Source of the DNA: an uncultured Oscillospiraceae bacterium
Lineage (GTDB): Bacteria > Bacillota > Clostridia > Oscillospirales > Acutalibacteraceae
Length of the DNA stretch: 64,000 nucleotides
NCBI GenBank assembly: GCA_949295415.1
Contig: CASFLA010000052.1
Location: 25,911 to 89,910, forward strand
Direction: 5' to 3'
Position numbers and translations under genes: made by a program. The notes under the pieces were generated by a model. That model was not told the origin of the DNA, made no database searches, and worked only from the letters and a program-made list of their open reading frames with translations. Numbering within the stretch: the stretch's first letter is position 1; each line of letters begins with the position of its first letter. Shown here piece by piece: positions 35,559 to 38,361 of this stretch.

Positions 35559-35572
35559 AAAAAGACCTGAAG

Positions 35573-35614
35573 AAGGGAGACACTTCGTAAAGAAGTGTTC
35601 TCCCTTGGTTTTCG
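35573..35614 (+). terminator. rho-independent terminator of the gmhA-like gene
   Basis: Stem aagggagacacttc / gaagtgt(t)ctccctt followed by ggttttcgtt. Confidence 0.7.
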
Positions 35615-35620
35615 TTACAC

Positions 35621-35679
35621 AACAAAAATAATAGCCCACCTGAACGGTGAACTATTATTGTGGCGGAGAGAAGGGGATT
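35621..35679. repeat. left 59-bp direct repeat (duplicate of the tRNA-Ser 3' end plus its terminator)
   Basis: 58/59 identical to 38014-38072. The single mismatch is at 35650. Confidence 0.92.
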
Positions 35680-35712
35680 TTTAAAGAAAATGCCAAAGAG
35701 AATAAAATCAGC

Positions 35713-35925
35713 TTAATTTATGCAAGTAAAGCGCTTAAACACCTTGCCGTCTCTTTCTATCGTTTCGTTCCACAGCGAAGCAGGGCGAACCCAAAGCGTG
35801 CCGCCATCATAAAGCGCTTTATAGATTACCATCGGCTCGAGGGTTTCGGAATTTTTGGCAATGCCGATAACCTCATATTCATTTCCTTTAAAATGGCGAT
35901 ACCGCCCTAATTTAATCTCTTCCAT
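35713..35925 (-). CDS. DUF1653 domain protein
   Basis: 70 aa. Pattern GRYRHFKGNEYEVIGIAKNSETLEPMVIYKALY...WVRP is typical of DUF1653. GGAGG SD. 21 nt after the upstream gene. Confidence 0.75.
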   Translation of the reverse strand: MEEIKLGRYRHFKGNEYEVIGIAKNSETLEPMVIYKALYDGGTLWVRPASLWNETIERDGKVFKRFTCIN

Positions 35926-35946: not shown

Positions 35947-36711
35947 TTAAGCCAGGATAGTGTTTAATATTGTTAGGATATCGGTATTATGATTTCTGCT
36001 TAACATACCGAATATTTTAAGCATTTCAATAAACACTTTAATATTTTCTGAATTGATTTTAAACTCTGCCATTTCTTTTGTTTTGGCAGTTCTGCCAAGG
36101 AGTTGTTCTGAATTTTCCAATTCTGTTATAGGAAAGCAGAAATAGAGCATAGGTTGCACACCTATCGCATATTGCTTTTCTTTTATGATTATTTCGGTTA
36201 CCACTTCAAAATTGCCGAATTTATGAACAAGCATAGGGTATTCAACCTGTGTGCGCAAAAACTTTAATCCGTTCAATTCGGTTTCAACGAAATTTGTTCG
36301 CCTTATTGCTAATTGAGGATGTGTTATGGAATTGTCGAAGAAATTACTGTCATTAAGTGATGTAAGGTAGTTTTTAACATTTAACAGCTCTTCCTGGGTG
36401 ATAGTTCCCCAATCGTAAAAATACTTTATGTATTCTGAAAGCTCATATAATGCTTTTTCTTTGCCGTTAGCGCCTGTAAAACGAATACTCGGCATAGTGG
36501 TTCTGCTGAGCTTTTCAGTATCTGCTGTTATTACGTCGTATCCTATTTGCCACTCCACATAACAGTTTTGAGCAAAGGGTTCGCTTCTGGTTGAAACGGG
36601 CACGCCGTATTCATTCAAAATACTTCTGCGCTTAATTCTTGTTTTTTCAGTGCCTTTGGTTAGGGGAATAGCAACCTTTAATTCATTATCTTTTATACTA
36701 CTAATAAACAT
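35947..36711 (-). CDS. hypothetical 254-aa protein, methyltransferase-linked (candidate restriction endonuclease or other effector)
   Basis: GGAGGG SD, 32 nt downstream of the MTase stop, same strand. I could not recognise any family. Confidence 0.6.
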   Translation of the reverse strand: MFISSIKDNELKVAIPLTKGTEKTRIKRRSILNEYGVPVSTRSEPFAQNCYVEWQIGYDVITADTEKLSRTTMPSIRFTGANGKEKALYELSEYIKYFYDWGTITQEELLNVKNYLTSLNDSNFFDNSITHPQLAIRRTNFVETELNGLKFLRTQVEYPMLVHKFGNFEVVTEIIIKEKQYAIGVQPMLYFCFPITELENSEQLLGRTAKTKEMAEFKINSENIKVFIEMLKIFGMLSRNHNTDILTILNTILA

Positions 36712-36743
36712 AGATTCCCTCCGTTAGTTACTTTGGTAAAAGC

Positions 36744-37862
36744 TCATTTACTGAATAATTGTGCAAAATAATTATCTATCAAAGCATAGTTGTTGTTATG
36801 AGTATATTTAATACCTTTGTTTTTAAGCCAAGGGTATCTTTCGATACTGTTGGTTATAAAAACATCTTTTATGGGTTTGAACTTCTCGTTGTCTATAAAC
36901 ACATCAATATTGCCGTAATAATAAGGAAGTTTTTCTATATATCGCTTAAAAACATCAACATAACAATAATATTCAAACTTTCTTTTATCGACTATGATAG
37001 CGTTAGGCCCGTATTCCTCAATAAAGGTTCTACTACGGTTTAACGCGTTTATATCACGCATGGTGAAAAACAAAATATCATTTTCTTTGGGCTGGTCATA
37101 TTTTGACGGATATTTTGAAATGTAATTCTTTATTGAGTCATAATCAATACGGAATGTTTTGCCATCGATAGTTTTAAAGACTGTGTTCAAAATTTCATTG
37201 TAGGGCATTCCTTTTGAATCCCTTTTATATAATGCTATTATAATCGGGAACCCTTTCGTTTTAGATGTAAAACTAAAGCTTTGACTGTTTATAATCGAAT
37301 GGTCAATCAATGAATAATTACTATAAAATGGTTTTAGCAAATTGTAATTTGCTTTTTTAATCATGTATGAAAGGGGATGTAAAACAGCAACGTAATCAGC
37401 TTTAAGTTTATTGAATGAAAGCATAAAAGATATGCCGAGGTCTCTGGTTTTCAAATCGGGATCTACTGCACAGGGCTTTTGACTTTTCAAATCACTTTTA
37501 ACCCTTGAGGTTGTATCATTATAAGGGGGGTTGCCGATAATAATTATTTTGCTGTCTGATTGCAAGTTCACTGATTCTCTTGAGAAACCGGATAAAGTAT
37601 TGAGGCAATAATAATCACTTCTTTTATCATTCATGGTTGCAACTTCGATTGCTTTTGCATCAATATCGCATCCTATAGTTTTCAAATTTTCAAGCACTCG
37701 CAGAAATGAACCATAACCACATGATGAATCAATGTAAACATAATCGTCATAATTGGAGATGTTATGCTTAATTTTATCTATCAGATTTTCAACAAAAGCT
37801 TCGGGTGTATAAAAACAGCCAAAGTTCGTCATTTCTTTATATGTAAGGTGGTTTTGAGGCAT
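36744..37862 (-). CDS. gamma-class (TaqI/Eco57I-like) N6-adenine DNA methyltransferase
   Basis: Motif X FYTPEAFV, motif I DSSCGYGSFL, and motif IV IIIGNPPYND, in that order. AAGGAG SD favours the ATG at 37862 over 37871. Confidence 0.85.
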   Translation of the reverse strand: MPQNHLTYKEMTNFGCFYTPEAFVENLIDKIKHNISNYDDYVYIDSSCGYGSFLRVLENLKTIGCDIDAKAIEVATMNDKRSDYYCLNTLSGFSRESVNLQSDSKIIIIGNPPYNDTTSRVKSDLKSQKPCAVDPDLKTRDLGISFMLSFNKLKADYVAVLHPLSYMIKKANYNLLKPFYSNYSLIDHSIINSQSFSFTSKTKGFPIIIALYKRDSKGMPYNEILNTVFKTIDGKTFRIDYDSIKNYISKYPSKYDQPKENDILFFTMRDINALNRSRTFIEEYGPNAIIVDKRKFEYYCYVDVFKRYIEKLPYYYGNIDVFIDNEKFKPIKDVFITNSIERYPWLKNKGIKYTHNNNYALIDNYFAQLFSK

Positions 37863-37911
37863 ATAACACATCTCCTTTCTGAAATAATAAATAAATATAA
37901 ATTACAATTAC

Positions 37912-38013: not shown

Positions 38014-38072
38014 AACAAAAATAATAGCCCACCTGAACGGTGGACTATTATTGTGGCGGAGAGAAGGGGATT
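38014..38072. repeat. right 59-bp direct repeat (authentic tRNA-Ser 3' end plus terminator)
   Basis: 58/59 identical to 35621-35679. Its last 19 bp are tRNA nucleotides from the T-loop to CCA. Confidence 0.92.
38017..38053 (-). terminator. terminator of tRNA-Ser
   Basis: Minus strand: aataatagtccacc-gttc-aggtgggctattatt followed by TTTTGTTT. Confidence 0.6.
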
Positions 38073-38145
38073 CGAACCCCTGAATGGGTATTAGCCATTA
38101 CACGATTTCCAATCGTGCGCCTTAGACCAGCTCAGCCATCTCTCC
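38054..38145 (-). tRNA. tRNA-Ser (anticodon GGA), type II with a long variable arm and encoded CCA
   Basis: Hand-folded cloverleaf. Acceptor GGAGAGA/TCTCTCC, anticodon stem CACGA/TCGTG with loop TTGGAAA, variable stem AATGG/CCATT, T arm AGGGG-TTCGAAT-CCCCT, discriminator G plus CCA. 92 nt. Confidence 0.93.
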
Positions 38146-38197: not shown

Positions 38198-38361
38198 GAC
38201 CTTTTTTAAATTTTATTTACAGTAATTTTCAATTCGCTGTTAACATTTGGGAGAATTGAAAGAATGCGATGCGCCTTGCCAACAATAATACTTTATGTGA
38301 TATGCACCCCAAAAATTAGACGCTTTTGTGGTGCATATCAAGGAAACTACTGCGGTTTTAA

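Follow-up and report, generated by a model that had tools for sequence, protein, structure and literature searches.

A PabI-family restriction-modification pair with a predicted restriction DNA glycosylase in a gut Clostridia lineage

Organization of the locus

The window analysed here is a 64-kb stretch of DNA from a gut bacterium of the Clostridia (Acutalibacteraceae). On its minus strand lies a compact unit of three genes, comprising a DNA methyltransferase (M), the open reading frame that is the subject of this report (R) and a small gene with a DUF1653 domain. The unit directly follows a serine tRNA gene and is bracketed by two copies of a short direct repeat. The features, in order of position, are as follows.

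35621..35679, minus strand: direct repeat, copy 2; orphan 3' fragment of tRNA-Ser with terminator hairpin, just after DUF1653
35713..35925, minus strand: DUF1653 gene, 70 aa, 21 nt downstream of R (Pfam PF07866, E=1.2e-26)
35947..36711, minus strand: R gene, putative PabI-family (HALFPIPE) restriction DNA glycosylase/AP lyase with predicted target GTAC (Pfam, PADLOC, PDB, AF2, Foldseek)
36717..36722, minus strand: Shine-Dalgarno sequence GGAGGG, 5 nt before the R ATG (direct sequence reading)
36744..37871, minus strand: M gene, gamma-class N6-adenine-type DNA methyltransferase with a C-terminal target-recognition domain (TRD) (motifs, PADLOC, homology)
38014..38072, minus strand: direct repeat, copy 1; last 19 nt of tRNA-Ser with intrinsic-terminator hairpin (repeat search, terminator scan, alignment)
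38054..38145, minus strand: tRNA-Ser(GGA), immediately upstream of the M-R unit (ARAGORN)

Read from the window sequence, R is an ATG-initiated frame of 254 aa, and the interval between the M stop codon and the R start measures 32 nt (36712..36743). An initial annotation of this DNA had placed the same reading frame on the strand of the methyltransferase, behind a 32-nt gap and a GGAGGG Shine-Dalgarno sequence, and all of this was confirmed. M is an open reading frame of 375 aa in which the motifs occur in the order FYTP, DSSCGYGSF, GNPPY; translation probably begins at the second ATG (37862), which would make the protein 372 aa long, because a GGAG box abuts the first ATG and because gene callers and homologues alike give 372 aa.

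Family assignment of R

Pfam model PF09522 (RE_R_Pab1) matches residues 135-252 of R with E=6.2e-44 and 149.4 bits, against a gathering score of 25 bits, and the PADLOC model REase_II PDLC03538 matches at E=1.4e-21. When R was searched against PDB sequences, residues 13-253 aligned with R.CcoLI of Campylobacter coli (7cfa_A; E=7.4e-54, 46% identity), and R.PabI was recovered in two segments (2dvy, E=5.6e-19), with further R.PabI entries (3waz, 5iff, 6l2n) at about 1e-18. NCBIfam returned no model matching R; NCBI names nevertheless label proteins 65-72% identical to it as 'R.Pab1 family restriction endonuclease'. By sequence homology R is a member of the already described PabI/HALFPIPE family, not the representative of a new one. 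The initial annotation had recognized no known family and favoured a new family of restriction endonucleases (REases); the first statement is overturned by the RE_R_Pab1 match, and the second gives way to a family with solved structures (2DVY, 3WAZ, 7CFA).

The same annotation had found no classical nuclease signature, and in this it was correct. PD-(D/E)XK, HNH, GIY-YIG and PLD families were absent from R in Pfam at E<=1, where RE_R_Pab1 was the sole match, and a Foldseek comparison with the PDB retrieved no nuclease fold. Enzymes of the PabI/HALFPIPE family do not hydrolyse phosphodiester bonds; they restrict DNA by removing adenine from GTAC, in a metal-independent step that methylation to GTm6AC blocks, and by then cleaving the site as AP lyases (PMC7806768; PMC10273834). 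Nuclease motifs are thus lacking in R because the family excises the adenine base instead of cutting the backbone. That R might found a new phosphodiesterase REase family, or act as a methyltransferase-coupled effector outside restriction, would accord with the missing PD-(D/E)XK, HNH, GIY-YIG and PLD motifs and the lack of an NCBIfam model, but we give this virtually no credence in view of the strong Pfam, PDB-sequence and fold matches to PabI, the full retention of catalytic residues, and the more than 1,100 homologue clusters carrying PF09522, whose names, where given, are 'R.Pab1 family restriction endonuclease'. The suggestion of a non-restriction effector in a non-classical module likewise fails, since PF09522, the homology with R.CcoLI and the conserved catalytic residues place R in a restriction family.

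Predicted structure and functional residues

An AF2 model of the R monomer, computed from an alignment of 32 homologues, had a pLDDT of 89.4 and a pTM of 0.86, and the predicted structure has the HALFPIPE fold. Foldseek returned 14 matches in the PDB at E<=0.001, every one an R.CcoLI or R.PabI chain; the best of these had TM values of 0.7-0.84, the next match stood at E=0.33, and no nuclease structure was among the matches. The initial annotation had proposed AlphaFold and Foldseek as a way to look for a cryptic nuclease fold in R; the R.CcoLI and R.PabI chains were the only significant matches.

Residue roles were taken from the published work on R.PabI (the triad Y68, H211, D214) and on the R.CcoLI sites (PMC7806768) and were transferred to R by alignment, in which 16/16 functional residues named for R.CcoLI are kept. 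The glycosylase triad Y52/H222/D225 corresponds to Y58/H241/D244 of R, and the AP-lyase apparatus K71/D53/N67 to K86/D59/N82. All ten GTAC contacts of R.CcoLI (K17, R19, E47, Q49, I50, Q158, Q164, M166, Y168 and F215) are identical in R, where they are K23, R25, E53, Q55, I56, Q180, Q186, M188, Y190 and F234. By base, K23, R25, E53, Q55 and Y190 correspond to contacts with G, Q186 and M188 with T, I56 and F234 with A, and Q180 with C. K154, R32 and E63 of R.PabI map to K179, R25 and E53. Among the 32 homologues (59-98% identical to R) the mapped positions are invariant or nearly so, and Y58, H241 and D244 are invariant. The segment YDVITADTEK, which the initial annotation had singled out as a weak nuclease candidate, does hold functional residues, namely the catalytic Tyr58 and the lyase-supporting Asp59, but the chemistry that they predict is that of a glycosylase and not of a PD-(D/E)XK enzyme.

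The beta-sheet insertion that follows the catalytic tyrosine is present in R and is modelled at pLDDT >90. Next to the lyase lysine, R has a loop with 9 more residues than R.CcoLI, so that its AP-lyase efficiency could differ; the lengthened insertion includes a clade-invariant Lys67.

The methyltransferase partner

M is matched by the PADLOC model MTase_II PDLC03275 at E=2.4e-71. It is homologous to the M.PabI-type partners of bacterial systems. With one of these, the methylase encoded beside an annotated R.Pab1 gene on a conjugative plasmid of Campylobacter coli, it shares 40% identity from end to end, and the alignment extends through the C-terminal target-recognition region; a search of the PDB gave no sequence relative of M. 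Of the 77 related loci with an M match, 76 have the M homologue directly upstream of R in the same orientation, and the five related loci with no such match have no room upstream of R. This arrangement is the one reported for the bacterial PabI lineage, in which M precedes R and the M proteins are gamma-class enzymes with a C-terminal TRD (published survey). The view of R as the restriction partner in a two-gene type II restriction-modification (R-M) pair, put forward when the locus was annotated, is upheld. At one locus from an Acutalibacteraceae metagenome-assembled genome (MAG), L068, the order is R-then-M and the methyltransferase is just 34% identical, which may reflect a partner swap or a different sub-lineage.

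Avoidance of GTAC in the window

GTAC occurs at 4 sites in 64 kb, where 93 +/- 8 are expected from dinucleotide-preserving shuffles and 57.5 from a second-order Markov model. The observed/expected ratio (O/E) of 0.07 under the Markov model is the lowest of all 256 tetramers in the window. The same avoidance is found in Helicobacter and Campylobacter genomes that carry the PabI family (PMC10273834), and across the loci related to ours the ratio for GTAC is 0.46 overall, the Clostridia loci being the most depleted. The avoidance in the window could also stem from a different GTAC system located outside it in the genome.

These observations bear on the specificity of R. A PabI-family enzyme might recognize a sequence other than GTAC, or might act only as a glycosylase and leave strand breakage to AP endonucleases of the host. 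Such variants would be in keeping with the modest identity of R to the characterized members (26-46%), with a loop by the lyase lysine 9 residues longer than in R.CcoLI, and with R.PabI itself being a weak lyase (PMC7806768). We consider them very unlikely, however: the ten GTAC contacts are kept along with K86 and D59, GTAC is the most avoided tetramer in the window, and M can be aligned with its Campylobacter counterpart through the C-terminal target-recognition region. At identities of 26-46% to the characterized enzymes, the proposed GTAC specificity of R is drawn from the conserved contact residues together with GTAC avoidance.

One of the four GTAC sites (38146) abuts the 5' end of tRNA-Ser upstream of M, and was considered as an autoregulatory operator. 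Among 69 related loci, 11 have a GTAC site within 300 nt upstream of M, and the density there (0.68/kb) shows no enrichment over that elsewhere (0.53/kb); the candidate was rejected.

Other palindromic tetramers are also depleted across the whole window, GATC occurring 27 times against 175 expected (O/E 0.15), CTAG 15 times against 73, and ACGT 27 times against 78. Their depletion hints at other restriction pressures in the lineage, of which that on GATC would be the strongest.

History of the locus

The R-M genes have a GC content of 0.30-0.36, compared with 0.40-0.46 in the flanks, and a locus designated L003 carries a 97% identical block in flanks that are apparently different from those of the window. 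Both features would suit a recent horizontal acquisition of the AT-rich pair. This is ruled out by the occurrence of the unit at the same locus in a sister species (L087), and by synonymous divergence of R and M that equals or exceeds that of the host flanks. In the sister species the order is AP-endonuclease-2, GFO/IDH oxidoreductase, AraC, GH2, MFS and then tRNA-Ser(GGA)-M-R-DUF1653, followed by three ABC-transporter genes, SIS and Methyltransf_21.

Pairwise comparison with the L087 orthologues gave the following values.

R: dS 1.34, dN/dS 0.055
M: dS saturated, dN/dS 0.015
AraC (host flank): dS 1.29, dN/dS 0.096
SIS (host flank): dS 1.24, dN/dS 0.098

Since dS for R and M is equal to or above that for the host flanks, the acquisition is old. 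The comparison indicates that the M-R pair predates the split of the species and has since been passed down vertically under strong purifying selection, which fits the extreme avoidance of GTAC.

The possibility that R is an inactive relic, its methyltransferase now being an orphan or epigenetic enzyme, has a precedent in a published survey, according to which R.PabI homologues in Helicobacter and Campylobacter suffer disruption more frequently than the M genes paired with them. Here it is extremely unlikely, given an intact reading frame behind a strong Shine-Dalgarno sequence, the integrity of all functional residues, a dN/dS of 0.055 for R over a dS of about 1.3, and extreme GTAC avoidance. 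The low dN/dS, combined with a dS that matches the host flanks, argues that R is both old and functional.

The DUF1653 gene is under purifying selection as well (dN/dS 0.07-0.15). It follows R in close relatives only (L001-L003, L087 and L088) and in none of the other related loci. A role for DUF1653 as a general third component of the system was therefore rejected, the gene accompanying the pair only in this Acutalibacteraceae lineage and having no PADLOC match.

The window and the sister-species locus differ in what adjoins the tRNA-M-R-DUF1653 block. A cassette of a GH2 glycosidase and an MFS transporter, present in L087, is missing from the window on one side, and a three-gene amino-acid ABC transporter is missing on the other (window 38220-38343 and 35571-35680 compared with L087 2523-5650 and 8183-10666). 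The 7-kb contig of L003 also has MFS and ABC flanks, and L003 appears to share the L087 arrangement.

The tRNA-Ser gene and the direct repeat

The same tRNA-Ser precedes M in L003, L085 and L087. In the window the direct repeat is 59 nt long, with 58/59 positions identical and a spacing of 2393 nt, and its copies bracket exactly M, R and DUF1653. Copy 2 is absent from L003 and L087; it sits precisely at the end of the homology with L003, where the ABC cassette is missing. It is likely to be the transcription stop for M-R-DUF1653. The repeat resembles a junction of the att type or a 'long target duplication'; alternatively, it may be a scar left when a rearrangement removed the ABC cassette, and in either case it supplies a terminator after DUF1653.

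On a bolder reading, the 2.39-kb M-R-DUF1653 unit would be a mobile cassette without an integrase that inserts at tRNA 3' ends and produces a long target duplication, with DUF1653 as a third functional component, for example a regulator of the toxic glycosylase. The unit indeed contains no integrase. Look-ups of the flanking proteins for an empty site, in which tRNA-Ser and terminator would be joined to SIS, gave occupied loci only; two pattern scans of metagenomes did not find the empty junction, and were uninformative in that the occupied junction was equally absent. We regard the cassette reading as speculative and rather unlikely.

Other PabI-type pairs of Clostridia also lie downstream of tRNA genes, namely tRNA-Ser(TGA) in L005 and L006 and tRNA-Arg(CCG) in L022, where a near-tandem repeat of 113 nt begins within the 3' end of the tRNA.

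Distribution of the family

Homologues of R form 1,116 clusters at E<=1e-3, and those with names are 'R.Pab1 family restriction endonuclease'. A scan of species-representative genomes yielded 205 stretches encoding R homologues. Many are from MAGs of Patescibacteria/CPR, Clostridia, Verrucomicrobia and Rickettsiales, Asgard archaea are represented by MAGs too, and Spirochaetes and Campylobacterales complete the list. Of these genomes an Acutalibacteraceae MAG is the nearest, at 98% identity. No match to R was found in the phage collection, and plasmid matches were confined to Campylobacter conjugative plasmids. PabI systems are reported to be mutually exclusive with Ku and LigD (PMC10273834).

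Four proteins of ~625 aa (P0158, P0165, P0166 and P0181) consist of an M.PabI-type methyltransferase fused in frame to a complete R.PabI domain, the methyltransferase part being 58-66% identical to the M of the window. They are apparent single-chain M-R restriction glycosylases, a form for which we found no description in the papers that we read.

Discussion

R is very probably the restriction subunit of a PabI-family type II R-M system, with a predicted activity of the base-excision or 'restriction glycosylase' kind. Family membership, the predicted fold, residue conservation, linkage to M, purifying selection and GTAC avoidance are the observations on which this reading is built; from them we infer, for this particular pair, the activities of the enzymes, their specificity for GTAC and the m6A nature of the modification.

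Work on the family provides a model for how the pair would operate. In the PabI family a homodimer forms the half-pipe groove that binds DNA; at GTAC it bends and unwinds the duplex, with G and A being flipped out. In mesophilic enzymes a lysine cleaves the resulting AP sites; in R.CcoLI this is Lys71, supported by Asp53 and carried in an inserted beta-sheet (PMC7806768; PMC10273834). By analogy, the gamma-class methyltransferase encoded upstream of R would convert GTAC in host DNA to GTm6AC. At unmethylated GTAC, R would bend and unwind the DNA, with G and A flipped out. Following adenine excision, the attack on C1' of the abasic sugar would come from Lys86, which the inserted beta-sheet holds in position and Asp59 supports. 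Strand breakage by beta-elimination, the AP-lyase step, would then lead to a double-strand break whose ends are difficult to ligate.

RsaI is a classical type IIP GTAC endonuclease, and enzymes of its class are Mg2+-dependent phosphodiesterases. R resembles the classical type IIP GTAC enzymes in its predicted 4-bp palindromic target and in the two-gene logic of the R-M system; it differs from them in having neither a phosphodiesterase motif nor a phosphodiesterase fold.

Within the family, the closest characterized likeness is to R.CcoLI (PDB 7CFA), which with its relative R.HpyAXII of Helicobacter pylori represents the mesophilic bacterial branch. The homology is full-length at 46% identity and the predicted fold superimposes with a TM of 0.78-0.84; the Tyr/His/Asp triad, the ten GTAC contacts, and the lyase lysine with its supporting aspartate in the inserted beta-sheet are shared, as are the co-directional order of M then R and the avoidance of GTAC in host DNA. 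R departs from R.CcoLI in its host, which belongs to the Clostridia and not to the Campylobacterales, in the 9 additional residues of the active-site insertion, among them the clade-invariant Lys67, and in a longer N-terminus, which in the AF2 model forms an extra first strand as in R.PabI.

R.PabI of Pyrococcus abyssi (PDB 2DVY, 3WAZ), the founding restriction DNA glycosylase, is the more distant relative, with an identity of only about 26%, although R retains the HALFPIPE fold and equivalents of Y68/H211/D214, K154, R32 and E63. R.PabI is without the beta-sheet insertion by which the lysine is directed at the active site, and its AP-lyase activity is weak (PMC7806768). In archaeal PabI systems M and R are arranged tail-to-tail, and M is longer and possibly non-orthologous (PMC7806768 and published survey).

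A protein that looked like a novel effector is thus filed, by a standard Pfam scan, in the sole known family of enzymes that restrict DNA by base excision. According to published surveys, the PabI family is confined to a few thermophiles and to Campylobacter and Helicobacter (PMC10273834 and another survey). Its range in the databases searched here is far wider, with more than 1,100 clusters and 205 species genomes in many phyla, including gut Clostridia and CPR. A gut-derived mesophilic homologue with a complete lyase apparatus could serve comparative enzymology. In this gut Clostridia lineage the avoidance of GTAC is as extreme as in Helicobacter, and the system has been kept at one locus across species; both features fit a long-term coexistence with a toxic glycosylase.
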